NCBI GenBank assembly: GCA_964474825.1
Contig: CAYYWQ010000001.1
Span: 677,609 to 741,608 of the forward strand
Reading direction: 5' to 3'
Length of the DNA: 64,000 bases
From: an uncultured Candidatus Saccharibacteria bacterium
GTDB lineage: Bacteria > Patescibacteriota > Doudnabacteria > UBA920
Positions within the stretch are counted from its first letter, which is position 1; every line of letters starts with the position of its first letter. The translations under genes were made by a program, and so were the position numbers. This document shows, one piece after another, positions 3,001 to 23,647 of the stretch. A model generated the notes under the pieces. The model did not search any database. It worked only from the letters and a program-made list of their open reading frames with translations, and was not told the origin of the DNA.

Positions 3001-3670
3001 GAATGAAGTCATTGCAGTGCGTGGTATACTTTTGCCGACCGTCAGCCACATTGTTGGCTGGAGTTGCAATACCGACCACGGAAAGGTAGTTGGCGTTGGG
3101 TAACTGTTTACTCTTTCCGTCCGCGTTGCGGAGACGGATACCATATTCCAAGTTAGCGTAAAAGTTTCCCTGGCTGTGACCAACAAGAACAACGTAGTAA
3201 CCCTTGCTCCAAAAGTCCAACACGACTTGATCTAAGGTTGCCAGATCAGAATCGGCTTTGAACTGATCATCCTGGAATCCCAAGGCCGCTGCCATAAAAG
3301 ATTTATGGGCTTGGGACTGTTGGTTAAGCAGGTTAAGATCGTTGAGATACTTGTCGACCTCCTGCATACCAATTTGGTCAATTGCCTGATTGATGTCGCC
3401 TCTGCCAAGCAGAGTCTTGAGCAGGCCGGAACTTTGGTTGTGGACCGCTTTAAATTCCACGCAAGAGGAACTTAGACCAGGGTTAGAGGCCATAAACCTT
3501 GCTTTGATCTGGTCAACAAAGTCTTGCCATATTTTACTATCCGGTACCAAAATCCCATTGGCCCAAACAAATGCAGTCTTGCCGTAGGGGCAATCCTGCG
3601 CCAAAACCAGGCCACTGGACGAAACCAGCAACCAAAACAAAAACAAAATACGGCCTAAGCCGCTTTTCAT
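1..3670 (-). CDS. Large secreted multidomain protein, 5' part only (C-terminus beyond window edge). Contains a signal peptide, a lipase-like alpha/beta-hydrolase domain, a Thr/Gly-rich Ig-like linker and two tandem LamG-type (concanavalin A-like, Laminin_G_3-like) jelly-roll domains.
   Basis: The minus-strand frame is open from ATG at 3668-3670 (AGGAG-like RBS ~9 nt upstream) to position 1 with no stop. It is missing from the ORF track because the stop is outside the window. Features read from my translation: N-terminal MKSGLGRILFLFWLLVSSSGLVLAQ signal; nucleophile-elbow motif VLVGHSQGNFYANLEY; two diverged repeats each ending ...WHHVAITYDGVTM(K/R).Y(V/I)(D/N)GVLDNS....GSLDD(L/F)A(I/V)F(N/S)RPLT..EV..LYGGGG, the hallmark C-terminal strands of LamG_3 domains. 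The region is visibly more GC-rich than its neighbours. Confidence 0.8.
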   Translation of the reverse strand, partial: MKSGLGRILFLFWLLVSSSGLVLAQDCPYGKTAFVWANGILVPDSKIWQDFVDQIKARFMASNPGLSSSCVEFKAVHNQSSGLLKTLLGRGDINQAIDQIGMQEVDKYLNDLNLLNQQSQAHKSFMAAALGFQDDQFKADSDLATLDQVVLDFWSKGYYVVLVGHSQGNFYANLEYGIRLRNADGKSKQLPNANYLSVVGIATPANNVADGRQKYTTHCNDFIHFAPAFVRVPESAMPWNVRDSLLSCITTYVVVPSLSLGAAALNAVNVGYSVKAHLLPTYMTDNSNTQKQIFQHLEDSLPDPGCGGDTNCYLKDSFRSADYTGNWLQTSDSATISNSTAIQSAGVLLFNSHTYLFSGGGMYPATVNGSVTLRTRRVFVGPVDITFFINTNIGGGKSIFSLKKALKDSTILALTIDSVKNSVETFPNLVTINSTASNFGGWKLLTITKTNNTVSMSVGGATWSVASDLMDGLYLEIESQGDNTLHVKDLSVVRTAAAGLQPPPTLIPTCSANPAVITAGQSTVFTGSYTGGTGAVSGVWGKVVSGSGTTATYATTTSTPAGFGSATFTVTDSGSPKQAATANCSVQINAPVLPSVPGALSSTSLATESSLLWYASFNNNTNDSKGTNNGVPANITYVAGKHGQAASFNGSNSHITLPTPISFLPSKQFSVVVWTYQTFAKYADILVTAKDTLLNRYKGYEFALIDSQKVRVYVDGADTAYFTGNTVLSLNTWHHVAITYDGVTMKIYVDGVLDNSGAVPASVTDSYGNSIVGAFFNDAYGANFNGSLDDLAIFNRPLTSTEVSMLYGGGGGTGIAQPPSVLPQQPPTPTPGNIQTLNPVANTPFDITVTNATNFVLGKIQAWVFDTGACTAGCRHPDSLLANVTASGMVLQKVQLAAGDHYLKFRNTDSGAWSNASATFTVAPAVVSGPIPFSQTSLALDPSLMVCYSFNGNTNTCKGTNNATPTNITYSSGKFEQAANFNGSSSHIIPTSPISFTAKNFSIIFWLYQSQAKFHQIFTTNKDLGANNYKDYEFVVLANQKLRAYVDGGNTAIFNGNTAIPLNSWHHVAITYDGVTMRSYINGVLDNSAAIAPSVADSFGNFIIGAWYGNAYGINLAGSLDDFAVFSRPLTASEVATLYGGGGTATVTQPTQPTQPTTGTVNNSVSGYSRTILCTLNGVSISAPSILTNQDAGSKTLVCTPPPGYNISSITPTQILQGGGTVN

Positions 3671-3817
3671 ACTTGTACACTCCTGAAATTCAGATTTGGA
3701 AAACAAAAACACAGACAGTATTAAGAACGCCTGCCTAAATGACTACCCAATGTTTCTCTTTCCCCTCCCGGTTACCAAAAATTATTGATAACCAGTATGA
3801 GGAAAGAGAAAATTTAT

Positions 3818-4885: not shown

Positions 4886-5659
4886 ATGGACAGTGTGTTA
4901 GTTAAACAGCTCAAAAACTTCGGACTTTCAGAAAAAGAGTCAAAAATCTACCTTGCTTTGCTGGAATTAGAAATGGCAACCGTATTTGAAGTTGCCAAAC
5001 AGTCAGGCATAAACCGCAGTTCCGCTTACGTGGTTTTAGAGGCCTTAAAGAAAAAAGGATTTGTAGGAATATCTGACGACAAAAAAGTCCGTAAATATAT
5101 TGCAGCTTCCCCGGAAACTCTTCTCCATGCAGCAAAAGCCGCTGCCAAAAAACAGGAAGATACAAAAGAAGGAATTGAATCTATTCTTCCAGAACTAAAG
5201 GCACTGCACAAGTCTACGAAACATAGACCTATAGTAAAAATATTTGAGGGGGAAAGTGGAGCAAGGGAAGTATATTGGGATGTTTTATCAACAAAAACAA
5301 AAAAAATAAAAGTTTTTGCAAACCCCGATAATATATTTAAAAGAATTCCGGATTTTTTAGATTACGATAAAGAAAGAAGTGAGAAAAAAATTAAAATGTT
5401 TGCAATAAGCCCAGCGACCAAAGGAGTGGTAAACATATATAAATACACCCCACCACATCAACCCTATGAAGCTGCTTTAATTCCTGAAAGTAAATTTAAA
5501 TTCACATCGGACATTGGAATATATGAAAATAAAGTCTCTTTTGTTTCTCCAGAGGACAACTTTGGGATAATTATAGAAAGTCAAGAGATTGCGGACATGC
5601 TCGGAAACAGCTTTGATTTGGCATGGGAAGAAGCAAAAAGACTGGATAATAGAACGTAA
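4886..5659 (+). CDS. TrmB-family HTH transcriptional regulator
   Basis: The N-terminus LKNFGLSEKESKIYLALLELEMATVFEVAKQSGINRSSAYVVLEAL matches the TrmB wHTH signature. It lies immediately upstream of, and in the same orientation as, the 7-gene operon. Confidence 0.75.
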   Translation: MDSVLVKQLKNFGLSEKESKIYLALLELEMATVFEVAKQSGINRSSAYVVLEALKKKGFVGISDDKKVRKYIAASPETLLHAAKAAAKKQEDTKEGIESILPELKALHKSTKHRPIVKIFEGESGAREVYWDVLSTKTKKIKVFANPDNIFKRIPDFLDYDKERSEKKIKMFAISPATKGVVNIYKYTPPHQPYEAALIPESKFKFTSDIGIYENKVSFVSPEDNFGIIIESQEIADMLGNSFDLAWEEAKRLDNRT

Positions 5660-5815
5660 ATAGTTCTGCATCTCATATACTTTAAGTTTTTAAAGTCTTA
5701 TGATGAGCTTTCTTTTCTCTACTATATTTTAAAATGTGTATATTTAAAAAGCACAAAAGTTAAAAATGTGTTATAATTATACAGACTTTCTTACATAAAG
5801 AAACAAAAAAACGTA

Positions 5816-6829
5816 ATGCGGCCAATAATTTCATTTCCAGATATTGAAGGCTTAAATCGCCTTTCAAAAACTGAAAAAATCAATCTTTTATTGACTGCTG
5901 CCTCTTTAGCTCCTTCCACAATCAACACCCAACCCTGGCTATTCAAGATCGAAGGCAATAGAATAGAATTATTTCTAAACCCTTCCCGCCATCTTCCGGT
6001 TTCTGACTCAAGTGGAAGACAAGCCTATATTAGCCTTGGGGCATGTTGGGCTAATTTAGAGTTACTTGCCCAAAGCTATGGACTAAAATACAGGACCGAA
6101 CAACCAACTAAAATTGCAATAAATAAAGCGGTTGCAAGTTTTATTATTGAAGACTTTAAATCCAGTAACGATGACTCCGAAACTAGGGAGGCGATAATTC
6201 AAAGGCATACCAACAGATTCCCGTTTGAAAAAAAACCCCTTCCTTTAAATTTTGTTCAAAAAATAAAACTGACATCCTCGCCTACTCTTACCCTACATTT
6301 AGCAGAAGATGGGGAAACAAAAAATGAAATAACCCCTATAGTTCTTGATTCGGTATTTGAAATGTTCTCCAAAAAAGACTGGTCTAAAGAATTATCACAT
6401 TGGGTAAAACCCGGCTTAAAAAAATACGAGGACGGTATGCCTGGTTATTATTTAGGAGTTCCCCTGCCAATTTCTTTCCTAATGCCCTTAGTCTTAAAAT
6501 ATGGCTCAGTTGCTAAAATGCAACTACAAACTCATAAAAAAATGCTTAGTTGGGTAGGTGCATACGGAGTCATTACTGCTTCAGAGAATAATCCCTTAAC
6601 TTGGTTTTTAACTGGGGAAATGTTTGAAAAAATTGCTATAGAAGCGCAAAAAAATAACATTAAGGTTGGAATACTAACAGCACCCACCGAAATAGAAACT
6701 TATAGCCAAAAACTAAAAAAAATCTTAGGGACGTCAAATACTCTACAAATGTTTTTCCGCTTAGGCTTTACTGAAAAAACCCCCATTTTCAGTCCTCGCT
6801 TACCAATAAACAAAATAATTAAAGTATGA
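5816..6829 (+). CDS. Nitroreductase-superfamily protein (double-domain Acg/SagB-like size class)
   Basis: Has LAPSTINTQPW (nitroreductase NxQPW motif) and RHTNRFPFE (RxxxRxF FMN-site motif). At 337 aa it is larger than simple NfsB-type enzymes. Confidence 0.7.
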   Translation: MRPIISFPDIEGLNRLSKTEKINLLLTAASLAPSTINTQPWLFKIEGNRIELFLNPSRHLPVSDSSGRQAYISLGACWANLELLAQSYGLKYRTEQPTKIAINKAVASFIIEDFKSSNDDSETREAIIQRHTNRFPFEKKPLPLNFVQKIKLTSSPTLTLHLAEDGETKNEITPIVLDSVFEMFSKKDWSKELSHWVKPGLKKYEDGMPGYYLGVPLPISFLMPLVLKYGSVAKMQLQTHKKMLSWVGAYGVITASENNPLTWFLTGEMFEKIAIEAQKNNIKVGILTAPTEIETYSQKLKKILGTSNTLQMFFRLGFTEKTPIFSPRLPINKIIKV

Positions 6830-7869
6830 ACGGTTCAAAAATTTTACTTAAGGACTTTGACAATCATCGCCTAGTAACTTTCATTTACGACCCCCAATCT
6901 AAGCTACAGGGATTTATTGCTATACATAGAGGCAACGGCAGCAATGTCCCCTCTTTTGGTGCCACAAGATTTGTTTCTTATAACACTCTCACAGATGGCC
7001 TACATGACGCTTTGCGATTATCCCGCTTAATGTCCTATAAGGCTGCAATGGCTGGCTTAAAATATGGAGGAGCAAAAGGAGTAATTCTTATTCCCCAAGT
7101 CCCACATAATAAAAAACAAATTTTACAGGCATACTGCAAAAAAATAAACTACCTTAACGGCCATTTTATTACCGGTGCCGACGTAGGCATTAACGGTTCC
7201 GAGGTAGGAACAATGAGGAAATATAGTAATTTTATTGTTGGTGTAAAAGTTGATCCAGTCAAATATACAGTTTTAGGCATTTTGTACGGCTTACAAGTTT
7301 CACTACAAGAAGTCTTTGGAAACTCAGACATTCAAGAAAAAACATTCTCCATTCTGGGGGTAGGAAAAATTGGCACGGGTATTTTAAAATCAATATATGG
7401 GCAGGCAAAAAAAATCTATATTTCCGACATAGACCAACAACAAATTAAAAAAATTAAGCACGCCTTTCCCAAAATAACGATTCTTTCCCCGCAAGAAATT
7501 TTCAAACAAAAAGTGAATGTGTTTATGCCCTGCGCATTAGGCAACGCATTAAATACTAAAACAATATCAAAACTTAGGTCGGATATAATTTTAGGAGGGG
7601 CAAATAATCAATTAACGAACAGCACTGTTGGGGAATTATTATTTAAACTTGGTATTCTATATGCCCCAGATTATGTTGTAAATGCAGGCGGTTTGATTTC
7701 AGTTGTGGACGAATATGAGAACAAAAATATAGTGGAAACTAGAATTGAAAAACGGCTAAGTAATATTAAGACAGCACTTCGTTCTATTTTTAAACAAAGC
7801 ATGGCAACCGGCATAGCTACAAATATGGTTGCAGATAAAATGGCAGAAAAAATTTTTAACAATCATTAA
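6826..7869 (+). CDS. Glu/Leu/Phe/Val-type amino-acid dehydrogenase family protein (Leu/Phe/Val dehydrogenase-like)
   Basis: PSFGATRFVSY...ALRLSRLMSYKAAMAGLKYGGAKGVI matches the catalytic Lys/Gly-rich region of LeuDH/PheDH. ILGVGKIGTG forms a GxGxxG NAD(P)-binding site. The start overlaps the upstream gene by 4 nt. Confidence 0.75.
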   Translation: MNGSKILLKDFDNHRLVTFIYDPQSKLQGFIAIHRGNGSNVPSFGATRFVSYNTLTDGLHDALRLSRLMSYKAAMAGLKYGGAKGVILIPQVPHNKKQILQAYCKKINYLNGHFITGADVGINGSEVGTMRKYSNFIVGVKVDPVKYTVLGILYGLQVSLQEVFGNSDIQEKTFSILGVGKIGTGILKSIYGQAKKIYISDIDQQQIKKIKHAFPKITILSPQEIFKQKVNVFMPCALGNALNTKTISKLRSDIILGGANNQLTNSTVGELLFKLGILYAPDYVVNAGGLISVVDEYENKNIVETRIEKRLSNIKTALRSIFKQSMATGIATNMVADKMAEKIFNNH

Positions 7870-7888
7870 TAATTAAGAAATAATCTTT

Positions 7889-8704
7889 ATGCAAGCTAGT
7901 GCCGAGAACACAAAAACAAAAGAATGGTGGGAGAGTGAAGGAGGTTTCTTTGGAGACCTCTATAGGCAGGCAGATAATTCTCAAGAAGGCCACCTAAACT
8001 CACCTCAAGACTTGTTAGCCAGAACGGAAAAAGAAGTTAACGGAGTTATAAAATTATGCACCTTAAACCCAGGTGGTGCCGTTATGGACTGCCCATGTGG
8101 TTACGGCAGACACTCTTTAGCCTTGGCACAAAAAGGTTTTCAAGTAACTGGAGTCGACATTAATAAAACTTTTCTCAAACACGACAGGGAAGAACTTGAA
8201 AAAGCCAAGCTTGCCAATTGTCAGTTTGTCGAAAAAGACATGAGGCAAGTGGACTTTAACAATCAATTTAATGCTGTAATAAATATGTTCTACTCTTTTG
8301 GATTTTTCGAAACAGAAGAGGAAAATTTAAAAGTCGCAGCGAATTTTTATAACGCTCTAAAACCAGGTGGAAGGTTTTTAATGCATACGCATATCACTCT
8401 TCCAAAAATCTTAAATGGTGATTACAAAACCCATGAAATCAGAACCCTACGAGACGGAAAGAAGCTAGAATTATTCCGCACATACAACACCCAAACCAAA
8501 AGAGAAGATGGAGAATGGTTTATTTTACATGAGGATGGCAAAAAAGATTCTCTTACCCCCTACTCCGTACGGATTTACAGCCTGGAAGAATATACTGATT
8601 TATGTAAAAAGGCTGGTTTTAAAGAAGTGTTAGCTTATGGAGACTGGTCCGGTACGCCGTACACCGATAAATCTCCAGAATTAATTGCAGTTGCCGTAAA
8701 ATGA
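7889..8704 (+). CDS. Class I SAM-dependent methyltransferase
   Basis: VMDCPCGYGRHSLALAQKGFQVTGVDIN (motif I, DxGxGxG-like) and a downstream acidic motif II. Confidence 0.75.
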   Translation: MQASAENTKTKEWWESEGGFFGDLYRQADNSQEGHLNSPQDLLARTEKEVNGVIKLCTLNPGGAVMDCPCGYGRHSLALAQKGFQVTGVDINKTFLKHDREELEKAKLANCQFVEKDMRQVDFNNQFNAVINMFYSFGFFETEEENLKVAANFYNALKPGGRFLMHTHITLPKILNGDYKTHEIRTLRDGKKLELFRTYNTQTKREDGEWFILHEDGKKDSLTPYSVRIYSLEEYTDLCKKAGFKEVLAYGDWSGTPYTDKSPELIAVAVK

Positions 8705-10272
8705 CTGTAAAAAATTCTTTATTCTCTGGAGCCTTACCGTTTCCCAATTCTGTGGAGTGGAAATCTTTTTATTCTGCGGATTTAAAAACGATGGTCAAAA
8801 AGTTTATAACTTTCTCCCCAAACGTTTTTGAAAAAATGGGAGAGCAAATGGCCTTTAATCTTTTTCACAACATGGCCAAGCGAGTCCCAGCTTATAAAGA
8901 TTACCTGAAGAGTAATAAGATTAACTCGCAAAAAATTAAAACGTTCTCCGATTTAAGATTTATACCGTGGATAGACAAAGAAAATTACCTTAAAAAATAT
9001 CCTCTAAAAGACTTATGCTGGGACGGTAAATTAACAGCGCCAATAATTTCAGCAAGTTCTGGCTCTTCCGGCCAACCATTTTTTTGGCCTAGGTCCTCAG
9101 CAATAGAAAAAGAAACCTCCTACATATACGAATTATTTTTACGTTTTTTGTTTGATATAGGCAAAGTACCCACTTTGTTAATAAACGGTTTTTCTATGGG
9201 TATATACATTGGGGGCACGTTCACTCTTAACTGTTCAATGAGGCTTCATCAGAAAGGTTATCCTTTAACAATAATGACCCCCGGTATCCATCAGGAAGAA
9301 ATTCTAAAAATTGTAGAAAAAATTGGTGGAAACTATGGGCAGATAATACTGGGTGGTTATCCTCCTTTTATTAGGGACATTTTAGATGCAGGCGAAAAAA
9401 GAGGTATTAACTGGAAAAAGAAAAATATAAAATTTATATTTGCTTCGGAATCCTTAAGCGAAGAATTTCGCTCTTACCTTTATTCCAAAGTTGGTATCTC
9501 TAACTCTTCATATTTGACTTCTTCAATGAACCTTTACGGAACCGCCGACGCCGCAGTTGCCGGTCACGAAATGCCCTTGAGCATACTTATTCGCAAGCTT
9601 TTTAGTAAAAACGCAGAACGTACCCAAGATTTCTTCTCCAAGACCTACGTGCCTTCTTTGAACCAATATTATCCATTTTTTAAATATTTCCAGACTGAAA
9701 ACGGTGAGTTAATTTTTTCCACTTCCCATAATGAAATTCCATTACTAAAATATAACATCCATGACAGGGGTAACATAATTTCATATGAAAATATGCTGGA
9801 GATAGCTAGGTCCTTTGGTTATAACACCAATGATTTAAACAAATTAGTTGGCAAACAATTGCTCTGGCGTTTACCATATGTTTATCTTTACGGCCGGAGC
9901 GATTTCACTACAACTCTTTACGGTTTAAATATCTACCCTGAAAATATAAAGGCCGCACTGGAAACTCCTGCGATCCGCCATCTCTGCAGCGGAAAGTTTG
10001 TTATGGAAACAAAAAATCGTGCAAAGACTCAAAAGCAGTATCTGGCGGTTCGTGTAGAACTCGCAAGTGGAATAAAGCCCTCTAAGTCTTTAGAGCGCAA
10101 ATTCCAGCAAGTAATTGTAACTACTTTACGCAAAAAAAATTCCGAATTTAACCACTTATTTCATTCAATAAAAAACCAAGCCCTGCCTGACATAAGCTTG
10201 AATATTAAAGGCGAAGGCGTTTACTTTAAACCCAGCATCAAACAACAATGGGTCAATAAAATCAAATCTTGA
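8701..10272 (+). CDS. Adenylate-forming enzyme of the phenylacetate-CoA ligase (PaaK) / coenzyme F390 synthetase / CapK-like family
   Basis: ISASSGSSGQPFFWPRS matches the P-loop-like AMP-binding motif (T/S-SG-T/S-xGxP). LYGTADAAVAG matches the core motif. The ~520-aa size is consistent with the ANL-superfamily PaaK-like subgroup. Overlaps the upstream gene by 4 nt. Confidence 0.6.
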   Translation: MTVKNSLFSGALPFPNSVEWKSFYSADLKTMVKKFITFSPNVFEKMGEQMAFNLFHNMAKRVPAYKDYLKSNKINSQKIKTFSDLRFIPWIDKENYLKKYPLKDLCWDGKLTAPIISASSGSSGQPFFWPRSSAIEKETSYIYELFLRFLFDIGKVPTLLINGFSMGIYIGGTFTLNCSMRLHQKGYPLTIMTPGIHQEEILKIVEKIGGNYGQIILGGYPPFIRDILDAGEKRGINWKKKNIKFIFASESLSEEFRSYLYSKVGISNSSYLTSSMNLYGTADAAVAGHEMPLSILIRKLFSKNAERTQDFFSKTYVPSLNQYYPFFKYFQTENGELIFSTSHNEIPLLKYNIHDRGNIISYENMLEIARSFGYNTNDLNKLVGKQLLWRLPYVYLYGRSDFTTTLYGLNIYPENIKAALETPAIRHLCSGKFVMETKNRAKTQKQYLAVRVELASGIKPSKSLERKFQQVIVTTLRKKNSEFNHLFHSIKNQALPDISLNIKGEGVYFKPSIKQQWVNKIKS

Positions 10273-10276
10273 AGCC

Positions 10277-11311
10277 ATGCTAAAACCCTACTTCTTTAAA
10301 AAACAAAAACCAACCCGAGTTGAACTAAAAAAATTTCCGGTTAAAAACATGGTGGATATTTTTACCACGCAAAATCGGGAATTGTTTGACGTTTTAAATC
10401 CTCATGCTAAATTCGAACAAAATTACAAAAAAAACCTAGAAAAATTTTTAAAAAACAGAGTTGGGCAATGGATTTATTTTCCTTGGAACCAAACCCTTCT
10501 GCACACCCTTCTTTCTAATGAGCTCTTTTTATTAAGAACCAATCGAAACAGAAATCTTATTAATAACGAGGAGCAGAATACTCTTGCTAATTTTACAGCG
10601 GCTGTAATTGGGCTTTCTATTGGCAACTCCATAGCCTTAAACCTACTCTATAATGGCATTTCCAGAAAAATTAAAATAGCAGATTTAGATACTTTAGAAA
10701 CATCTAATCTAAACCGTGTCAGAGCAAGCCTACAGGATGTTGGCAAAAGCAAAATCTCAATTACTGCAGCGCAAATTTATGAAATTGATCCCTACGCGTC
10801 TATTTATGCCTTTGAAAAAGGAATTCAAGACAAAACTTTAAAACAACTCTTTGCAAACCCAAAACCAAAAATTATATTCGAAGCAATTGATGATTTAAAA
10901 ATGAAAATCCAAATCCGATTAGCAGCAAAAAAGGCTAAAATCCCGGTTGTAATGTTGACTAATTTAGGAAATAATATACTTATAGATGTAGAACGCTATG
11001 ACTTAGATAAAAATTTACAACTCTTCAACGGCCTAATAGGAAAAGCTGGCAAAGAGATCCTAAATTCAACAATATCCGAGCAGGATAAACAACGTTATGC
11101 CGTAGCAATAGTTGGGAAAGAAAATGTTCCTTTAAAAGCATTAGATTCATTACGGGAAATTAATAGAACATTAGTTGGCAGGCCCCAACTAATGTCAACG
11201 GTAACCATTGGTAGCGGCATAGCCTCGCTTATAGCCAAAAAGATTGCTCTAGGTGAACCTGTCAAAAGCGGCCGCAGTTTAATCAAGCTAGAACAGTTGA
11301 TTAATTTTTAA
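10277..11311 (+). CDS. ThiF/MoeB/E1-like nucleotidyltransferase-domain protein
   Basis: AAVIGLSIGNSIALNLLYNGISRKIKIADLDTLETSNLNR matches the ThiF Rossmann GxGxxG segment and the downstream D..E.SNLNRQ motif. The N-terminal ~100 aa are an extension. Confidence 0.65.
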   Translation: MLKPYFFKKQKPTRVELKKFPVKNMVDIFTTQNRELFDVLNPHAKFEQNYKKNLEKFLKNRVGQWIYFPWNQTLLHTLLSNELFLLRTNRNRNLINNEEQNTLANFTAAVIGLSIGNSIALNLLYNGISRKIKIADLDTLETSNLNRVRASLQDVGKSKISITAAQIYEIDPYASIYAFEKGIQDKTLKQLFANPKPKIIFEAIDDLKMKIQIRLAAKKAKIPVVMLTNLGNNILIDVERYDLDKNLQLFNGLIGKAGKEILNSTISEQDKQRYAVAIVGKENVPLKALDSLREINRTLVGRPQLMSTVTIGSGIASLIAKKIALGEPVKSGRSLIKLEQLINF

Positions 11312-11315
11312 TCTT

Positions 11316-12197
11316 ATGGACACGAGTGAAAAAAAACTTCTTGAAAGTCTTGGAAATATTAAAGCAGAAATTAAGCAATTTACGACAGAAGATGTTACAA
11401 TAAACTATGTTAAAGCAGGAACAGGTTTTCCACTATTACTAATTCATGGAGCCAACTTTGGTTGGGGTCAATGGCATACCTTAATCACCGATCTTTCACA
11501 AAACTACACTGTGTATGCTGTAGACCTTCCAGGATTTGGCAACTCCACTTCCTTAAACTATGAAAAACTGGAATTTAACCGTCAGCTAGTTAAACCCATG
11601 GCATCTTTTGTTGAAAAAATGGGTTTGCAAAATAGTTTTGTAATGGGCCATTCTTTAGGAGCTTGGGTTGGGATGAAATTGGTTTTAGATGGTTATGCGA
11701 ATTTTAAAAAAATAATATTAGCAAATCCTTTAGGGTTCTCAAAAGATACACCACTACAATATAAATTACTTGGCCTACGCTGGGTGGCCAAACTGCTCGC
11801 AAAAACTGTCCTAAAAATAAGGCCGGGAAACATAAAAAAATTTTTAAATATTCCACTACACACTAAAGTCAGCTTCCTTCCAGAATTTACTGATTATTAC
11901 CATTCCATATCAAAAGGCGAATTCAGGCATCCTTTTTACTTATTTAACCGTATAGCTGGATTTAAAAAAGTTAACAAAGAATTAATACTTGACAGCAAGC
12001 TCTCACAAATTCATCAACCAGTTTTAATTATTGGCGGAGAGTATGATCCCATTGTATCTTTAAACCATAAACAAATAGAACTAATAAACCTACTACCTGA
12101 AGCAAAGATTAAAGTAATAAAAGGGGTTGGTCACGTCCCTTTTTTTGAAAATAGAAACGAATTTTATAAAGTCATTAATGAATTTTTAAAAAAATAG
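11316..12197 (+). CDS. Alpha/beta-fold hydrolase
   Basis: LLLIHGANFGWGQW (HG oxyanion region), VMGHSLGAWVG (GxSxG nucleophile elbow), C-terminal GHVPFFE (His of the catalytic triad). Confidence 0.75.
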   Translation: MDTSEKKLLESLGNIKAEIKQFTTEDVTINYVKAGTGFPLLLIHGANFGWGQWHTLITDLSQNYTVYAVDLPGFGNSTSLNYEKLEFNRQLVKPMASFVEKMGLQNSFVMGHSLGAWVGMKLVLDGYANFKKIILANPLGFSKDTPLQYKLLGLRWVAKLLAKTVLKIRPGNIKKFLNIPLHTKVSFLPEFTDYYHSISKGEFRHPFYLFNRIAGFKKVNKELILDSKLSQIHQPVLIIGGEYDPIVSLNHKQIELINLLPEAKIKVIKGVGHVPFFENRNEFYKVINEFLKK

Positions 12198-12201
12198 CTG
12201 A

Positions 12202-13854
12202 ATGGAAATTATATCCAAGTTAGAATTTATTCTTCTGTTATGCGCCATAGCAATCAATGCTTTACTAGCTTGGGTTGTTTATACAAGTGACAAAAAAAGT
12301 GATACAAACAGACTTTACACAGTATTAAGTTTAAATATTTCTGTTTGGCTGATTATAAACTACATCTCTCACACAACCTTATTTTTAAGTAATAGTATTT
12401 ACTGGATTCGCCTAAGTTTGTTTTTTGCGCTTCCCATGAGCATGTTGTTCTTCCTGTTTGCCCATACAATACCGGAAAAAGTAATACGTATATCCAAACG
12501 GCAGTTAGTACTATTATTCGCGCTAACTGGATCGGCCATGCTGTTAACGATATCACCCTATACTTTCACCGAGGTCAAGCTGGTTAATGGTTCGCCTCTA
12601 CCCGTTACAGGTCCGGGAATAATTTATTTTGGATTCATATCAATTACCTACAGTCTTTTTGCTGCAATTACATTTTTCCGAAAATACAAGTCTTCGACTG
12701 GCGAACAACGACTCCAATTCAAATATATTATGTATGGCGTCTTGTCGATGATAGGCTTGATTACCACTACTATTTTCTTGCCGGTTATATTTTTTAGCAA
12801 CAATACCTTTCTTGGTTTATTGCCTCTCTACACGCTAATTTTTCTTACTATTTCGGCGTATGTAATCATTGGCTTACATTTATTCAAAGTAAAACTTATC
12901 GCCACTGAGGCCTTATTTTTTGCACTTTGGATAGGTCTTTTTTCTCAGGCATTAGGAAGAAATTCTGTTTCTGATCTTTTTGTAGGCTTTATTATGCTTT
13001 TTGGATTAACTGTTTTGGGATATTTACTTATCAATGGGGTTAAAAAGGAAGTTGAACAAAAAGAGCTATTAGAAGCTTTAACACAAGAGTTAGGTGATGC
13101 TAATGAGAAGCTTCAGAGTTTGGACAAGGCTAGGGCGGAGTTTATTTCTATTGCTAGCCACCAACTACGCACTCCCCCTTCCACTGTAAAATGGTATATG
13201 TCTTCCGTGCTTTCCGGGGATTTTGGAAGAATTTCGGCCAAAGTTTTAGAGCCTCTTAAAAAAGTAAACGAAACCAACAACCATTTAATTTCTTTAATTG
13301 AGGACATGTTAAACGTTTCGCGTATAGAACGCGGAAAAATGGAATTTTTATTTGAGCAGACTAATGTGCAGGACTTGGCCAAACAGGCTTTTGACCAGTT
13401 AATTCCTATGGCCAGCGACAAAAAACTAAAGTTTGATTTCGATTCCCCCAAAAAACCCTTACCAGAAATAATGGCAGACAAAGAAAAACTTAAGCAGGTT
13501 ATGAACAACCTAACAGATAACGCCTTAAAGTATACCAAGTCCGGCAGCGTTAAAGTTAAAATTTACGAAAAAGACGGAAATATTTTCTTTGAAGTCACAG
13601 ACAGCGGTAAAGGCATTAGCAAAGAAGACCGTGAAAGCATTTTCCAAAAATACACCAGAGGCAAAGAATCTGTTAAGCAAAGCGCGGGCCTGGGCCTTGG
13701 GCTTTATGTTGCCAAAATAATTATAGAGCAGCACAAAGGCAAAATTTGGGCCGAAAGCCCTGGCGAAGGCCAAGGCAGCACCTTTGCCTTCAGCGTCCCA
13801 ATTAAGAATGACTTAAAGGCTACTACGCTTGTTGACCTAGCCACACAAAAATAA
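12202..13854 (+). CDS. Sensor histidine kinase with an N-terminal multi-pass (about 7 TM) membrane domain. No adjacent response regulator in the window.
   Basis: Hydrophobic N-terminal ~290 aa, coiled-coil linker, H-box FISIASHQLRTPPSTV, N-box DNALKYT, G-boxes DSGKGISKE and GLGLGLYVAKII. Confidence 0.85.
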   Translation: MEIISKLEFILLLCAIAINALLAWVVYTSDKKSDTNRLYTVLSLNISVWLIINYISHTTLFLSNSIYWIRLSLFFALPMSMLFFLFAHTIPEKVIRISKRQLVLLFALTGSAMLLTISPYTFTEVKLVNGSPLPVTGPGIIYFGFISITYSLFAAITFFRKYKSSTGEQRLQFKYIMYGVLSMIGLITTTIFLPVIFFSNNTFLGLLPLYTLIFLTISAYVIIGLHLFKVKLIATEALFFALWIGLFSQALGRNSVSDLFVGFIMLFGLTVLGYLLINGVKKEVEQKELLEALTQELGDANEKLQSLDKARAEFISIASHQLRTPPSTVKWYMSSVLSGDFGRISAKVLEPLKKVNETNNHLISLIEDMLNVSRIERGKMEFLFEQTNVQDLAKQAFDQLIPMASDKKLKFDFDSPKKPLPEIMADKEKLKQVMNNLTDNALKYTKSGSVKVKIYEKDGNIFFEVTDSGKGISKEDRESIFQKYTRGKESVKQSAGLGLGLYVAKIIIEQHKGKIWAESPGEGQGSTFAFSVPIKNDLKATTLVDLATQK

Positions 13855-13858
13855 CATA

Positions 13859-13968
13859 GGACTTCCACACCGCTACTTTTCTGGACTGGCGGAACTTGTC
13901 ACCGTAGATAAACTACGCCTCCAAACATCCTCAGAAAATGCCTCGAACTTGGCTCAGTGTGGAAGCCC
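13859..13968 (+). ncRNA. Candidate structured RNA element (copy 1), of unknown family, followed by an intrinsic terminator
   Basis: A ~110-nt intergenic segment closed by the 9-bp inverted repeat CTTCCACAC/GTGTGGAAG, with an internal conserved hairpin CGTAG-ATAAA-CTACG. Three sequence blocks are conserved, in reverse complement, at 57428..57650. Confidence 0.35.
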
Positions 13969-13972
13969 TATC

Positions 13973-14004
13973 AAAAAAACTCTTGTTAAAACAAGAGTTT
14001 TTTT
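13973..14004 (+). terminator. Rho-independent terminator
   Basis: AAAAAAACTCTTGTT-AAA-ACAAGAGTTTTTTT: a perfect stem followed by a T-tract. Confidence 0.65.
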
Positions 14005-14064
14005 GGGTCACAAGAATTGAGTTAACATAGTGTATAATAGAATTACTTACATAACATTAGCGGT

Positions 14065-14814
14065 ATGGTTAATTTAACAACAGGCGGTAAATATAAGTTT
14101 GCAACAGTAAAACAGAACTACGAAGATTATTCTAGCGGGAGGGTACTTTATGGCGCAACCGGAGCAACCGGTTTTCCTGTTAGGTTAACAAGTGAAATTT
14201 TCCAGAGAGCCGCTAGAAGACTAGAGAACGCTGGGGTTAAGGCCCCTTATTCTATTTACGACCCTTTTTGCGGGGCCGGTTACTCCTTAACCGTTATAGG
14301 GTTTTTGCACGGAAGCGCGATTAAAAATATAGTCGCTTCTGACGTTAACAAAGAAGCCCTGGTGACCGCACATAAAAACCTTTCCCTATTAACTACAAAA
14401 GGGTTTAACAATAGGATTCAAGAATTAATTAAATTAAAAAATACCTACAACAAAACTTCACATAAAGAGGCTTTAGAAAGTAGCGAGCGTTTGAAAAACA
14501 AGGTGCCAAATATAGACATTAAAATATTTGAATTTAATATACTTAGTAAACAAAATTTACCTATACCCCAAACTTCCATAGATTTAGTTTTAACAGACTT
14601 ACCCTACGGCAAACTTACCCAATGGGAAGGAAAGGAAGCAGCGGTTAACCCAACCCAAAACTTTTTAAATAATATTAGCCTCCTGCTTAAACCAAACGCA
14701 ATAATAGCAATAAGCGCTAACAAAAAACAAAAACTCGCTCATGAAGGCTATAAACGAGTAGACCTGCTCAAACTCGGAAAAAGACAAGTGTTGTTTCTTA
14801 CTAAAATAGCTTAG
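14065..14814 (+). CDS. Putative N6-adenine/N2-guanine-type nucleic-acid methyltransferase (UPF0020/RlmL-like putative RNA methylase)
   Basis: DPFCGAGYSLTVIG (motif I, D-P-x-C-G-S/A-G) and DLVLTDLPYG (motif IV, a (D/N/S)PPY variant). Confidence 0.6.
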   Translation: MVNLTTGGKYKFATVKQNYEDYSSGRVLYGATGATGFPVRLTSEIFQRAARRLENAGVKAPYSIYDPFCGAGYSLTVIGFLHGSAIKNIVASDVNKEALVTAHKNLSLLTTKGFNNRIQELIKLKNTYNKTSHKEALESSERLKNKVPNIDIKIFEFNILSKQNLPIPQTSIDLVLTDLPYGKLTQWEGKEAAVNPTQNFLNNISLLLKPNAIIAISANKKQKLAHEGYKRVDLLKLGKRQVLFLTKIA

Positions 14815-15736: not shown

Positions 15737-16549
15737 CTACCTTAAATATGCTACAAACTCCCCAATTGCATTGTAACCCGTTAACTCTTCATACCCGCTC
15801 ACCCCAGGCCAGCGGTTAACTTCTAATATATAGTACTTGCCTTTACTTTCAATAATGTCTACTTTGGCCAGCTCCCGTTTAAGCAAAGCAGATGCTTTTT
15901 CAGCTAGCGCTACAACCTCTGCCACTGACTGTGCAGCAACGGAATCATGGGCATAATAATCCACCCCAAAGCCTGTGTCAGAAATTTTATGCCTTAAAAC
16001 CACAGGCAAACTTTTGTAGCCAACTGTAATAACTTTATACTCATACTCAGCCTCTAAAAATTCCTGAACCATTAATTCATCCCGCGGAATAGTGGACGGG
16101 ATTTTTTGCATGTCTTCTAGCTGGCGAATTAAAAAAGTACCCTGGCCCTTAAAACCGTAGATCCATTTTAAAATTAGCGGATACCTTAAATCTTCAATCT
16201 TAAATCCTAAATCAGTTTTAGGAATTGCCAGCCCTGCCTTTCCTAAAACTTTATAATCTTCCCATTTTCCTTCTCCTAATTCGCCCTGAGCAATAGCAGC
16301 ATCTACAACTTTTTTACCGGCGACTTTAAATTTTTTGGCCAAGTCAATAATTTGCAGAAAGTATTTGGGGCTGCCGTTCAAATACGGTAGGCGAATGTAA
16401 AAAACGCTATAGTCGTCCACGTTAACCTCAAAACTCCTTTCCACCAACTCCTGCATACTCAAAACCTCCACAGCAACATTTTGCAGTTTAGCTTCTTCCA
16501 CAAACCTTCGCGTAAAATAAACGCTTTTTAGAGATATCAACAGTATCAT
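15737..16549 (-). CDS. RimK-type ATP-grasp ligase (alpha-L-glutamate ligase-like)
   Basis: ATP-grasp motifs: PLILKWIYGFKGQGTFLI, YKVITVG and the C-terminal YILEVNRWPGVSGYEE. Confidence 0.8.
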   Translation of the reverse strand: MILLISLKSVYFTRRFVEEAKLQNVAVEVLSMQELVERSFEVNVDDYSVFYIRLPYLNGSPKYFLQIIDLAKKFKVAGKKVVDAAIAQGELGEGKWEDYKVLGKAGLAIPKTDLGFKIEDLRYPLILKWIYGFKGQGTFLIRQLEDMQKIPSTIPRDELMVQEFLEAEYEYKVITVGYKSLPVVLRHKISDTGFGVDYYAHDSVAAQSVAEVVALAEKASALLKRELAKVDIIESKGKYYILEVNRWPGVSGYEELTGYNAIGEFVAYLR

Positions 16550-16582
16550 TGTTTAATTGTACAAGAAAATCAGCTATACTGA

Positions 16583-16766
16583 CAGTGTCGCATAATGTTA
16601 AAACTACCCCTTCAGAAAAGCCCGTGTCGTAATATCACCTGTGGACATTGTGGATAACACCTCGCGTCGCATAATGTTATTAGCGAGTAGGATGTAGCCG
16701 GTAGCTTGTAGCCAAACAAGTATCGCAGGCCTACTTCCTACTCACTACTAGCTACAAGCTAACCCC
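16583..16766. repeat. Integrase-proximal repeat block: two dif-like XerC-arm motifs (GTGTCGCATAATGTTAAAA at 16583..16604; GCGTCGCATAATGTTATTAGCGA at 16664..16687) plus an imperfect hairpin U1/U2 (16681..16718 and 16730..16765)
   Basis: TCGCATAATGT matches the XerC-binding arm of proteobacterial dif (GGTGCGCATAATGTATATTATGTTAAAT). U1 and U2 are partial reverse complements of each other. Diverged copies D1 and D2 lie downstream of the gene. Confidence 0.45.
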
Positions 16767-16767
16767 T

Positions 16768-17763
16768 ATGAACCCTATCACTCCCCTGCGCAAGCTTATA
16801 ATGGATTTTTTGGAATACTGTGAGCTGGCCAAAAACCAAAGCCGCAATACTATTGCCGCGTATTTTAGGTATTTGGACAAATTTGAAAAATTTGCCCAAA
16901 GCTTGGGACTTAAGGAACCCAGCGACATAGACTTAGACACAATAAAAAAATACCGGCTTTACTTAAACCGGCTAACAGACAGCAAAGGGAATACTTTAAA
17001 GCTTATAACCCAAAATTACCACTTAATTGCGCTTAGGGCATTCTTAAAATTCCTAACAAAGCAGGACATAAAGACCTTAGCGCCGGAAAAAATAGAATTA
17101 CCAAAAAACCCGGAGCGCCAGGTGGAATTTTTAGAAAACCAGGAACTGGAAAGATTATTCGAAGCCGTAAAGTCCGAGAAAGACGAACTCCAGCGCCTGC
17201 GCGACGCAGCCATTTTACAAACCCTGTTCTCTACCGGTCTGCGCGTAAGCGAGCTAGCCAGCCTGCGAATAGATTCCATAAACCTTGAGAGGCGCGAGTT
17301 TACTGTGCGCGGAAAAGGCAGCAAACTTAGGTTGGTATTTTTGTCTGAAGAAGCAGCGGATGGCGTAAAAAAATATTTGACCAAAAGAAAAGACAACAGC
17401 AAAGCTTTGTTTGTAAGCCATAGCGGCGTTGGACAGAGCGTGGAAAAGCAGATAGACAGCCAAAGTAAAAAAAATAACATTAACGACAAAAATAACTATG
17501 GCAAAGCCGCGGGACTCACTCCCCGCTCCATTCAAAGGATTATAAAAAAATACTGCAAAATTGCAGGTATTGTAAAAAAAGTATCTCCCCACACCCTGCG
17601 CCACAGCTTTGCCACAGACCTTTTGCAGAACGGCGCGGACATAAGGAGCGTCCAGGCCATGCTAGGCCACAGCAGCATTACCACAACGCAAATTTACACT
17701 CACGTAACCAACCAGGGCCTTAGGGATATACATAAGAAATTTCATGGGAAGACTAATAGCTAG
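16768..17763 (+). CDS. Tyrosine site-specific recombinase (XerC/XerD family) with an internal Lys/Asn-rich insertion
   Basis: N-terminal SAM-like core-binding domain (LEYCELAKNQSRNTIAAYFRYL). The catalytic C-terminus has R (LRVSEL), HTLRHSFATDLLQNGADIRSVQAMLGHSSITTTQIYTHV (H-R-H...Y). A ~45-aa insertion (SVEKQIDSQSKKNNINDKNNYGK...) precedes the HxxR box. Confidence 0.85.
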   Translation: MNPITPLRKLIMDFLEYCELAKNQSRNTIAAYFRYLDKFEKFAQSLGLKEPSDIDLDTIKKYRLYLNRLTDSKGNTLKLITQNYHLIALRAFLKFLTKQDIKTLAPEKIELPKNPERQVEFLENQELERLFEAVKSEKDELQRLRDAAILQTLFSTGLRVSELASLRIDSINLERREFTVRGKGSKLRLVFLSEEAADGVKKYLTKRKDNSKALFVSHSGVGQSVEKQIDSQSKKNNINDKNNYGKAAGLTPRSIQRIIKKYCKIAGIVKKVSPHTLRHSFATDLLQNGADIRSVQAMLGHSSITTTQIYTHVTNQGLRDIHKKFHGKTNS

Positions 17764-17901
17764 TAGTAAGTAGCGGGTAGATGGTAGCCAAACAAAAAAT
17801 CCCACACCTTTTTGGTGTGGGATTTTTAATTAGGTCTCCATCTCATTTTTGCTCAAAAATGTTCTATCCTACTTACTACTAACTACAAGCTACTAGCTAA
17901 A
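17761..17901. repeat. Downstream repeat block D1 (17761..17795) and D2 (17868..17901) bracketing a terminator. These are direct copies of U1 and U2.
   Basis: D1 TAGTAGTAAGTAGCGGGTAGATGGTAGCCAAACA matches U1 TAGCGAGTAGGATGTAGCCGGTAGCTTGTAGCCAAACA. D2 CCTACTTACTACTAACTACAAGCTACTAGCTAA matches U2 CCTACTTCCTACTCACTACTAGCTACAAGCTAA. Confidence 0.45.
17795..17827. terminator. Rho-independent terminator (bidirectional)
   Basis: AAAAAATCCCACACC-TTTTT-GGTGTGGGATTTTT. Confidence 0.8.
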
Positions 17902-19962: not shown

Positions 19963-20037
19963 TGGTGGTCCCGGTTGGAATCGAACCAACATCAATGCCT
20001 TAGAAGAGCACTGCTCTATCCATTGAGCTACGGAACC
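19963..20037 (-). tRNA. tRNA-Arg (anticodon UCU)
   Basis: Reverse complement GGTTCCGTAGCTCAATGGATAGAGCAGTGCTCTTCTAAGGCATTGATGTTGGTTCGATTCCAACCGGGACCACCA folds as a cloverleaf: 7-bp acceptor, GCTC/GAGC D-stem, anticodon loop CTTCTAA, T-loop TTCGATT, encoded CCA. Confidence 0.85.
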
Positions 20038-20226
20038 ACGTAAGTTTTCAAGTTAAAAGTAAAAAGTTATCAAGTTATTTGTTACTTGATAACTTGGAGC
20101 TTAAAGCTTATTCTGCCCCTCGACTTCGCTCGGGACACTCGACTTGCTTCGAGGTTTATGAGTGGTTAAGGCCTCCTAAAGGCCGAAACCACGAGCGAGC
20201 TTTGACGTTAGTCAAAGCGAGTCGAG

Positions 20227-20303
20227 TGGTGATCCCGGCAGGAGTTGAACCTGCGACCTCAAGCTCCGCAAGCTTGCGCTCTATCCAGCTGAGCTACGGG
20301 ATC
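20227..20303 (-). tRNA. tRNA-Arg (anticodon read as GCG)
   Basis: Reverse complement GATCCCGTAGCTCAGCTGGATAGAGCGCAAGCTTGCGGAGCTTGAGGTCGCAGGTTCAACTCCTGCCGGGATCACCA: perfect 5-bp anticodon stem CAAGC/GCTTG, loop TTGCGGA (G37), encoded CCA. Confidence 0.8.
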
Positions 20304-22867: not shown

Positions 22868-23647
22868 ATGTATAAACACAGAGCAGCAATTATTATTTTT
22901 GTTTTAGCAATAGTTATTTTTGCTGTGTCGTTATTTAAAATAAACCAGCATTACCCACAAAATAAGATTGCAGATGCTCCAAAATTTAAACCGCATGCCT
23001 CCCCCACGCCTACATTTGTTGTCCCATCACCTTCCTCGTCTGTGTCTCCCACGCCTACCAGCTACGAACTACCAGCTACTCTGCTACTTCCAGTCCCCTT
23101 CACACCCCAAGCGCCAACCGGCAACTGGGACACCATTCATAACGAAGACTGCGAAGAAGCCAGCGCAATAATGGCTAATGCTTATTACAATGGCCCGGAC
23201 GACGTAAAGCTAAACACCGACTATGTTGAAGGACAATTAACCAAACTCACGGACTGGGAAATGCAAACCTATGGTTATAACCTGGACATAAACAGCGAGC
23301 AGACCGCGGAAATGATACAAGCCAACTACGGCCTTCACACAAAAATTTTATACAGCTACACGGAAGACGACATAAAAAAAGAATTGTCCCAAAAACATTT
23401 GGTATTATTCCCGGCCAACGGGCAAATGCTGGGCAACCCCAACTTTAAACAACCAGGTCCTAAATACCACATGATAGTCCTGCGGGGCTACACAACAGGA
23501 ACTATAATTACCAATGACCCCGGCACCCGCAACGGCCTAAACTATTCCTACTCCTTTGACACCCTCTACGAAGCCAACGGCAACTGGGATCACGATACTG
23601 AGAAGGTAAATTTAAATATAAAAAATATTATTGTGGTTTGGAAATAA
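22868..23647 (+). CDS. Membrane-anchored papain-like cysteine peptidase domain protein (Peptidase_C39_2-like)
   Basis: N-terminal TM segment, Pro/Ser/Thr linker, then NEDCEEASAIMANAYYNG (catalytic Cys context) and downstream YHMIVLRGY (His). These fit the C39-like fold. Family assignment by motif only. Confidence 0.5.
   Translation: MYKHRAAIIIFVLAIVIFAVSLFKINQHYPQNKIADAPKFKPHASPTPTFVVPSPSSSVSPTPTSYELPATLLLPVPFTPQAPTGNWDTIHNEDCEEASAIMANAYYNGPDDVKLNTDYVEGQLTKLTDWEMQTYGYNLDINSEQTAEMIQANYGLHTKILYSYTEDDIKKELSQKHLVLFPANGQMLGNPNFKQPGPKYHMIVLRGYTTGTIITNDPGTRNGLNYSYSFDTLYEANGNWDHDTEKVNLNIKNIIVVWK

Follow-up and report, generated by a model that had tools for sequence, protein, structure and literature searches.

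XerC and XerD act at the chromosomal site dif, which in Escherichia coli reads GGTGCGCATAA-TGTATA-TTATGTTAAAT with GCGCATAATGT as its XerC arm, and at the plasmid sites cer and psi, which have accessory sequences and use ArgR, PepA or ArcA. A one-gene arrangement is known from streptococci and lactococci, in which the site difSL lies immediately upstream of xerS, and autoregulation has been proposed (Le Bourgeois et al. 2007, PMC1914069). Heptameric repeats form a separate group of described elements; they are over-represented in several bacteria and include the cyanobacterial heptanucleotide repeats and the Xanthomonas/Nostoc heptamers, among them inverted pairs between convergent genes (PMC4692102, PMC4679880), as well as TAACTGA arrays of Beggiatoaceae, cyanobacteria and Bacteroidetes (PMC4679880). 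Here we analysed an xer gene and its flanks in a 64-kb stretch of a metagenome-assembled genome (contig CAYYWQ010000001.1, positions 677,609 to 741,608), referred to below as the window. An earlier note on this DNA had taken the segment 16583-17901, from two upstream motifs through the gene to its flanking repeats, for a self-contained recombination module. We consider a different explanation probable as a whole: the locus is not a mobile cassette but the ordinary chromosomal gene for an Xer-type recombinase, inherited vertically, of a Doudnabacteria-like Patescibacterium; it is preceded by a control region of Xer-like boxes and a DnaA box, which derives from, or is a sister of, the full 25-bp dif-like core site that relatives have at the same place; and its flanking repeats are two diverged copies of a separate, heptanucleotide-periodic hairpin and not recombination sites.

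Comparison with described Xer and integron systems

The window locus resembles XerS/difSL (PMC1914069) in that one Xer-type gene has its cognate site immediately upstream, probably in the promoter or leader. It also shares the clade-wide linkage of site and gene, a stand-alone gene with its own terminator, and a proposed autoregulation. Unlike that system, it lacks a full inverted site and has direct half-sites only, its module incorporates an invariant DnaA box, and there is no skew switch of the terminus type. The arms resemble canonical dif and not difSL, and the recombinase is XerD/XerA-like and not XerS, with 112 bits against the XerS hidden Markov model (HMM) cut-off of 267. The linkage extends to this clade, and a full upstream site and a terminus location are absent from the window.

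With XerCD/dif and cer/psi the locus shares the box GTCGCATAA(TGT), which closely matches proteobacterial dif along the XerC arm and into the beginning of the central region. The full sites of relatives have the inner XerD-arm TTATG in common with dif, and the left-arm side carries an accessory-like region. The clade sites differ from dif, cer and psi in having a 7-bp spacer rather than 6 and in lying beside the recombinase gene; where cer and psi use ArgR, PepA or ArcA, the accessory role would presumably fall to extra half-sites and DnaA. In further contrast to XerCD, no second xer paralogue was found in the 64-kb window. An integron-like aspect is the presence, close to a tyrosine recombinase gene, of imperfect inverted repeats of ~80-150 nt that can form hairpins and lie on both sides of an open reading frame (ORF). 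In the window, however, the flanked ORF is the recombinase itself, which is not IntI, there is no cassette or attC array, the neighbours are conserved and of a housekeeping type, and the hairpins are heptamer arrays of a kind that also occurs inside genes and away from integrases.

The Xer recombinase

The gene and its variable region are:

16768..17763, plus strand: xer, ORF for a 331-aa Xer-family tyrosine recombinase
17422..17511, plus strand: low-complexity hypervariable loop in xer (residues ~219-248), including a Lys/Asn-rich insertion

The product matches the Pfam families PF00589 (Phage_integrase catalytic domain, 1.6e-45) and PF02899 (SAM-like N-terminal core-binding domain, 4e-11), and the catalytic set R145, K183, H275, R278, H301 and Y310 is invariant in 15 relatives. 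Among NCBIfam models it hits XerD (9e-72), XerC (1.5e-70) and XerA_Arch (1e-68); XerA_Arch is the only one of these whose cut-off is passed (231.7 vs 220), the XerC and XerD equivalog scores lying under theirs. The PDB ranking is similar, with E. coli XerD at 2e-37 and archaeal XerA at 6e-37, followed by IntI4 (1e-22) and XerH (4e-16). Integron-integrase HMMs remained sub-threshold (TIGR02249, 141 bits with a cut-off of 265; NF011946, 90.8 with a cut-off of 435). Relatives of this Xer in species-representative genomes come from metagenome-assembled genomes (MAGs) labelled Candidatus Doudnabacteria, Patescibacteria or generic Saccharibacteria, at identities of no more than 77%.

The loop is of low complexity throughout the relatives and ranges from 0 to ~80 aa. 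The Lys/Asn-rich insertion to which the earlier note drew attention is thus real, but in a clade where this loop is hypervariable it is not atypical. In two of the comparison loci (numbered with the prefix L; L009 and L052) heptad arrays lie within the loop, and the xer orthologues of L001 and L012 have inserts similar to those of the L001 ATP-grasp gene, an orthologue of the neighbour described below.

A conserved module of Xer-like boxes and a DnaA box upstream of xer

The region between xer and its divergent neighbour contains:

16575..16580, plus strand: -10-like TATACT, 6 nt upstream of box m1; TGCTATACT in several relatives
16587..16600, plus strand: box m1, GTCGCATAATGTTA; core GTCGC..AA invariant in 22 aligned relatives
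16626..16635, plus strand: box m2, GTCGTAATAT; GTCG..A invariant; 39 bp past m1 and 40 bp ahead of m3
16640..16657, minus strand: a degenerate and a perfect DnaA box, the perfect box TTATCCACA at 16649-16657
16666..16679, plus strand: box m3, GTCGCATAATGTTA; GTCGC..AA invariant; in many relatives the left arm of a 25-bp dif-like inverted site

Boxes m1 and m3 are an exact 14-nt direct repeat, GTCGCATAATGTTA, at 16587 and 16666, and the boxes match the XerC arm of E. coli-type dif, GCGCATAATGT. In an alignment of 22 upstream regions the invariant positions are GTCGC..AA in m1, GTCG..A in m2, TGTGGA.A in the DnaA box and GTCGC..AA in m3, with unconserved sequence in between. The spacing is fixed, at ~39 bp from m1 to m2 and 40 bp from m2 to m3, with the DnaA box 16-17 bp ahead of m3. 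On the plus strand the perfect box reads TGTGGATAA, which on the minus strand is the DnaA-box consensus TTATCCACA; the 64 kb contain no other perfect DnaA box. Approximately 19 further metagenome loci carry the same combination of boxes and DnaA box.

The boxes are almost exclusive to xer. GTCGCAYAAY occurs 103 times in 871 kb (the window plus the comparison loci), 96 of these within 350 nt upstream of an xer start, and five of the remaining seven precede truncated or mis-started xer genes, giving a total of ~101/103. Elsewhere in the 64 kb the degenerate form GTCG[CT][AG][CT]AA[TC] is found only once, at position 165 on the minus strand. The boxes always lie on the upstream side of xer, never on both sides. 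In distant Patescibacteria with unrelated neighbours a box still precedes xer, usually just past a TATAAT or just before the ATG, and it persists there with or without a DnaA box. The two upstream motifs of the earlier note, read there as resembling an Xer arm, therefore hold up as real, xer-specific and Xer-arm-like, and the comparison with relatives supports their being Xer-related.

Promoter elements are closely associated with the module. In addition to the TATACT next to m1, m3 abuts an extended -10 (TGTTATAAT, TGCTACAAT) in many clade members, and a promoter-like minus-strand site for the divergent ATP-grasp gene overlaps the left edge of m1. Because xer is the only constant partner of the box, and the box resembles an Xer arm, we infer that Xer itself binds m1-m3; DnaA would bind its own box within the module. 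Since the boxes overlap or abut -10 elements, their likeliest role is autoregulation of xer with DnaA input, such that transcription of xer may be tied through DnaA to replication status.

Several other identities were considered for this region. A structured RNA, riboswitch or leader at 16583-16680 was rejected, as RNAalifold returned -3.1 kcal/mol with 0 covarying pairs and the spacers are unconserved; an Rfam search of the upstream region found no family, only sub-threshold terminator look-alikes. With no consensus structure, covariation or Rfam family, the boxes are DNA sites. A small leader ORF from m1 to a stop codon in m2 (m1-m2 38-39 nt) is interrupted by early stops in relatives (L005), and its peptide is unconserved. 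The strict restriction of the box to xer argues against a LexA/SOS box or other regulon-wide operator, and the boxes are not -10 elements themselves, as the invariant GTCGC..AA mismatches conserved positions of the -10 hexamer. Our literature searches found no description of an Xer-box/DnaA-box module.

Full dif-like sites in relatives

In relatives the place of m3 is often occupied by a full inverted site. The 25-bp imperfect palindrome GTCGC-N15-ACGAC occurs seven times in 658 kb of loci, 7/7 directly upstream of xer, and L092 has two such GTCGC...ACGAC sites in tandem, 7 nt apart and immediately ahead of the xer start, at ~3170-3260 on the minus strand. In many loci with the module, m3 forms the left arm of GTCGCAYAA-N7-(T/A)TRTGCTAC; in L001, L012, L028, L081, L082 and L084 the site reads GTCGCAYAA-N7-TTRTGCTAC. 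A full inverted site lies directly upstream of xer in L021, L023, L024, L033-36, L092, L012, L028, L081, L082 and L084. CGCATAA, TGT and TTATG are common to these sites and E. coli dif. In the relatives' sites the spacer is 7 bp long and the arms are consistently asymmetric, with GTCGC on the left vs GTCGT or GTAGC on the right (GTAGC in L012, L028, L081, L082 and L084).

The window itself has no partner (right) arm for m1, m2 or m3, and neither a clade-type full site nor a canonical dif was found in its 64 kb. In the window the upstream hairpin starts 19 nt past the first base of m3, where relatives have the right arm. As no full site is left in the window, no recombination is expected at the boxes. 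Between 3 and 64 kb the cumulative GC skew declines steadily; skew is negative on both sides of the locus, and it has the same sign on both sides in 18/20 relatives. With no skew switch, the boxes are not a terminus dif, and the missing full site together with the negative skew on both sides makes a role as the chromosomal dif unlikely. An origin at the locus was rejected along with a terminus: neither the window nor the relatives show a skew switch, and no dnaA, dnaN or rep was found among 25 proteins scanned between 2.2 and 31.7 kb. The idea that the gene carries its own sites thus survives in a loose sense, in the form of cognate boxes as for xerS with difSL, and not in the sense of the flanking repeats being recombination sites.

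Conserved position of xer

The conserved neighbour of xer is:

15737..16549, minus strand: divergent RimK-like ATP-grasp gene, a conserved xer neighbour by Pfam and locus comparison

The same divergent ATP-grasp gene adjoins xer in xer-anchored loci (~25) down to ~58% Xer identity. To reduce the bias of anchoring on xer, metagenome contigs were also searched with an ATP-grasp protein alignment; a search with the single ATP-grasp protein gave no confirmed relatives, and the alignment query succeeded. Counting the 25 neighbour-anchored loci with enough upstream sequence, xer adjoins the ATP-grasp gene in 24, always divergent and never inverted. The presence/absence comparison suggested by the earlier note thus finds the unit in 24 of 25 loci, with a single absence. 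This conserved position and orientation largely refutes the reading as a mobile cassette.

The same data separate the locus from integrative mobile elements exploiting Xer (IMEX), as there is no full site on either side, the boxes lie upstream only, a terminus signature is missing and the unit is present in 24 of the 25 loci, the single absence showing no footprint. At the level of these loci they also separate it from an invertible segment, since each of the 24 has xer and the ATP-grasp gene in divergent orientation. Contig breaks near xer are seen in several MAGs; structural heterogeneity was rejected as the cause, the breaks being explained by tRNA genes, simple sequence repeats (SSRs) and repeats resembling miniature inverted-repeat transposable elements (MITEs) at the contig ends. 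Two tRNA-Arg genes lie ~2.2 kb downstream of xer in the window (19963-20303, minus strand). tRNA genes are also kept downstream of xer in relatives, and the long contigs L008 and L012 break inside the same tRNA sequence.

Hairpins and terminator flanking xer

The elements on either flank of the gene are:

16678..16762, plus strand: upstream heptad hairpin in the xer 5' region, (GTAGNNN)x4, loop GCCAAACAA, (NNNCTAC)x4
17754..17900, plus strand: downstream heptad hairpin built from the same pair of arms; its left arm overlaps the 3' end of xer (last codons and stop codon)
17794..17829, either strand: bidirectional intrinsic terminator between the convergent xer and DUF2207 genes, 14-bp stem preceded by an A-tract and followed by a T-tract

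The two repeat pairs that bracket the recombinase ORF, as the earlier note had described, are 16678-16719 vs 17754-17795 (42 nt, 83% identical) and 16730-16762 vs 17868-17900 (33 nt, 88% identical). Each flank consists of (GTAGNNN)x4 ... (NNNCTAC)x4 with an exact 7-nt period and variable 3-nt spacers, and the GTAG core is perfect in all 16 units. Searching with GTAGNNNGTAGNNNGTAG at no more than one mismatch gave 14 matches vs 0.05 expected. Folding agrees with the hairpins proposed at both flanks, the upstream one reaching -34.2 kcal/mol (z = -4.0) and the downstream one -58 kcal/mol (z = -7.8 on the plus strand, -9.3 on the minus strand). Between the two copies there are two compensatory G:C<->T:A double changes that keep a 13-bp stem, and the left arms of both terminate in GTAGCCAAACAA.

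The downstream hairpin encloses the terminator stem (~17794-17829), also as claimed earlier; this main terminator is documented by folding and was not listed by a consensus terminator scan. Both convergent transcripts would be expected to carry a GUAG array just ahead of it. The layout of arm, terminator and inverted arm is also found downstream of xer in relatives, built from other units (TCTTAAT-like, ATAAC-like, TAACTGA-like, or the 8-nt ATCAGCNN), and the loop start ...CCAAACAAAAA and the terminator are recognisably the same in L083 and L104. The upstream GTAG hairpin is shared only by L022 among the relatives, where the loop is TTTAGCCAAACAG. In the closest relatives the window-type flanking repeats are absent or replaced by other 7-nt units. 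As the repeats contain no Xer-arm motif and are not conserved with xer, they do not support a cassette. A check for dispersed elements of the REP (repetitive extragenic palindromic) or MITE type found, in the 64 kb, the two GTAG/CTAC copies at xer and one CTAC half-array at 23055-23079.

If active, the hairpins most likely act at the RNA or structural level, in transcript stabilisation or read-through processing. In that role the upstream hairpin would be a stem of the 5' leader; the downstream one would surround the terminator as an extended outer stem, able to form only when transcription reads through. It is equally possible that both arose neutrally, by heptamer slippage and the maintenance of palindromes.

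Period-7 arrays as a general class

Arrays were scanned as a 4-mer core repeated at least four times at a fixed period, with periods 5-15 counted. A strict period-7 identity scan (18 of 21 positions) does not pick up the GTAG arrays, in which no more than four positions in seven are conserved. The core-based scan finds 47 period-7 arrays in 594 kb of relatives, with 0-2 at every other period, and six in the window vs 0-1 at other periods. The cores vary among arrays and lineages, even inside one locus (GTAG, AGTG, TAGTG, GAAT, CTAA, GAGA, ATAA and others). Outside the xer flanks the period-7 density is 0.38/kb in intergenic and 0.13/kb in coding sequence; periods 6 and 8 reach at most 0.11 and are not denser intergenically. 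Folding inverted pairs are found in the window and in L001, L019, L022, L028, L039, L048 and L078.

Period-7 arrays also lie inside genes as in-frame insertions, and in L001 a heptad hairpin pair lies inside the ATP-grasp coding sequence. The L001 orthologue (2556-3755, minus strand) is 399 aa vs 270 in length, with several in-frame insertions that read as translated palindromic repeats (such as PLTPPLEGGE and IPAKAGIQ) or as a heptad hairpin, in the manner of the gene-invading repeats of Rickettsia, here in a genome of the Candidate Phyla Radiation (CPR). In the window, GATTTAR x4 (on the strand of the gene) occupies 16185-16213 of the ATP-grasp ORF 15737-16549, the same variable spot where relatives have hairpin-derived insertions. 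The CTACNNN x4 array at 23055-23079 lies in a C39-like peptidase ORF (22868-23647), and a 7-nt tandem array, AATTCTA x4.9, at 51199-51231 lies apparently within the ORF 50507-51658. A perfect (TAAGTAG) array of at least 10 copies in L004 (5006-5075) runs from 30 nt past the xer stop to the contig end, and is thus long enough to break an assembly.

GTAGCCN arrays and inverted pairs also occur in 40 IMG/VR contigs (L124-L163) with a GC content of 0.34-0.71. The arrangement (GTAGCCN)n ... (NGGCTAC)n is common in putative phage contigs of GC 0.55-0.71, often beside gene starts. Only one of the 40 has an array beside a recombinase-like match; this is L142, with an inverted heptamer array ~80 nt from the end of a tyrosine-recombinase-like match.

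The arrays resemble the cyanobacterial short tandemly repeated repetitive (STRR) sequences, the GGGAATC-type repeats of Xanthomonas/Nostoc (PMC4692102) and the TAACTGA repeats (PMC4679880) in their 7-nt tandem units, their over-representation and mainly intergenic position, and their inverted stem-loop pairs between convergent genes; in both groups length and sequence vary between close relatives. The CPR arrays differ in conserving no more than a 4-nt core between variable 3-nt spacers, with many cores per clade, and in their in-frame insertions into genes, xer included. Literature searches that took in Patescibacteria/CPR gave no report of heptamer repeats from this group. The repeats at the xer flanks belong to a widespread class of heptamer hairpins that is common in these genomes and elsewhere.

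Alternative explanations

The most serious alternative is that the boxes are a working recombination site used for chromosome dimer resolution, either like XerS/difSL or like cer/psi with m1, m2 and the DnaA box as accessory region. Full 25-bp dif-like inverted sites at exactly this position in relatives, their consistent left/right arm asymmetry, the strong likeness to the canonical XerC arm, the central TGT and the inner XerD-arm TTATG, and the XerS precedent all speak for it. The window, however, has no right arm at any of the three boxes and no full site in its 64 kb, and the same-sign skew there and in 18/20 relatives places the locus away from a terminus; we regard this alternative as unlikely. 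A broader and similarly tentative idea is that Patescibacteria keep the cognate dif-like core site of a single Xer in the xer promoter, in an independently evolved counterpart of XerS/difSL. In that case the Doudnabacteria clade might have a platform of three Xer half-sites ~40 bp apart and a DnaA box that couples Xer expression or site synapsis to the initiator. Quite improbable, in our view, is that the heptad arrays are functional binding arrays and not structural hairpins, read by an oligomeric RNA- or single-stranded-DNA-binding protein at 4-nt cores every 7 nt (HutP reads UAG-N4) or by Xer itself. The perfect GTAG core in all 16 window units with varying spacers, the GUAG array that both convergent transcripts would carry just before the terminator, the enrichment at xer flanks and the GTAGC of the right arms in L012, L028, L081, L082 and L084, as in the window's heptad unit, would fit such binding. 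Against this, the cores differ between arrays even within one locus, the arms are complementary including the spacers, with compensatory changes that preserve pairing, and arrays of the same GTAGCCN type turn up in high-GC phage contigs that are unrelated and have no xer. The 7-nt period, the clustering at xer flanks and the GTAGC shared with the outer right arm do prompt the speculation that heptad arrays are mechanistically tied to the 7-bp crossover spacing of the recombinase.

We give very little weight to two further explanations. The segment 16583-17901 could be the self-contained mobile or invertible cassette of the earlier note, with Xer recombining the repeats; it has direct and inverted repeat pairs around the ORF, heptad arrays are somewhat enriched at xer flanks, several MAG contigs break near xer, and one locus lacks xer and boxes together. 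But position and orientation are kept in 24/25 neighbour-anchored loci, the repeats change or vanish among the closest relatives and contain no Xer-arm motif, the boxes occupy one side only, the IntI HMM stays below its cut-off with XerD and XerA far above IntI4 in the PDB ranking, and the contig breaks have the ordinary causes given above. Neither an IMEX-like or integron-like cassette nor a relic of an integrative element is supported by this combination. It is similarly doubtful that the boxes and the DnaA box form an iteron-type origin or a DnaA-titrating or -reactivating site. Two features would suit such an element: the invariant consensus DnaA box, accompanied by a degenerate one, and three evenly spaced, iteron-like direct repeats. 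However, skew polarity does not switch, there is only a single good DnaA box, neither an AT-rich unwinding region nor a DnaA-trio is visible, the 25 scanned proteins include no dnaA, dnaN or rep product, and the boxes follow xer over phylum-level distances with or without a DnaA box.

Several observations weigh against the explanation that we prefer, a chromosomal xer gene with an Xer-box/DnaA-box control region and separate heptamer hairpins. Three direct half-sites 40 bp apart correspond to no known Xer operator layout, and another conserved factor may bind the predicted boxes in place of Xer. The search for dif covered 64 kb of the genome. One neighbour-anchored locus, L091, is the sole one without xer and boxes; it has thrS, 780 nt of non-coding DNA (2718-3500) and the ATP-grasp gene, with no footprint of the unit. 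(The 780-nt stretch contains MITE-like repeats and TAACTGA-type heptamers.) The period-7 density is 1.44/kb at xer flanks vs 0.38/kb in other intergenic sequence, and arrays are present in 20% of xer-flank regions vs 8% of size-matched intergenic regions (p = 0.03). Given this 2-4-fold enrichment, the hairpins may not be fully independent of xer. Finally, the non-heptad GTAGCCAAACAA is common to both hairpin copies, with no further complete copy in 64 kb.

Surroundings of the locus

At the left end of the window (1-3740, minus strand) a stop-free frame of at least 1247 aa runs off the end, with a signal-peptide-like start and a GC content of ~0.53 vs ~0.40 for the rest; it probably encodes a giant surface protein, judging from its sequence. 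A co-directional block of low-GC genes (0.35-0.37) at 4886-14814 on the plus strand ends ~2 kb from xer. It includes a TrmB-like regulator, TM1586/nitroreductase-like and ELFV-dehydrogenase-like proteins, an S-adenosylmethionine (SAM) methyltransferase, a 523-aa protein without a Pfam match, a ThiF-like protein, an alpha/beta hydrolase, a seven-transmembrane (7TM) histidine kinase and an AviRa-type rRNA methyltransferase. This block looks like an acquired natural-product or resistance island.

Significance

What remains of interest at this locus is the clade-conserved Xer-box/DnaA-box module, the dif-like full sites in sister lineages, and the abundance of heptamer hairpins in the CPR. The hairpins call for some caution, as heptamer-periodic hairpins are common in these genomes, invade genes, break assemblies and can look like the boundaries of a cassette wherever they happen to flank a gene. 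Almost nothing has been charted in the CPR of how chromosome dimers are resolved and how this is controlled. The cis-module described here is specific to xer and conserved from Doudnabacteria to distant Patescibacteria classes, with an invariant DnaA box in one clade. It gives a testable handle on the target sequence of Xer, on Xer autoregulation, and on a DnaA link that would connect xer expression to replication.

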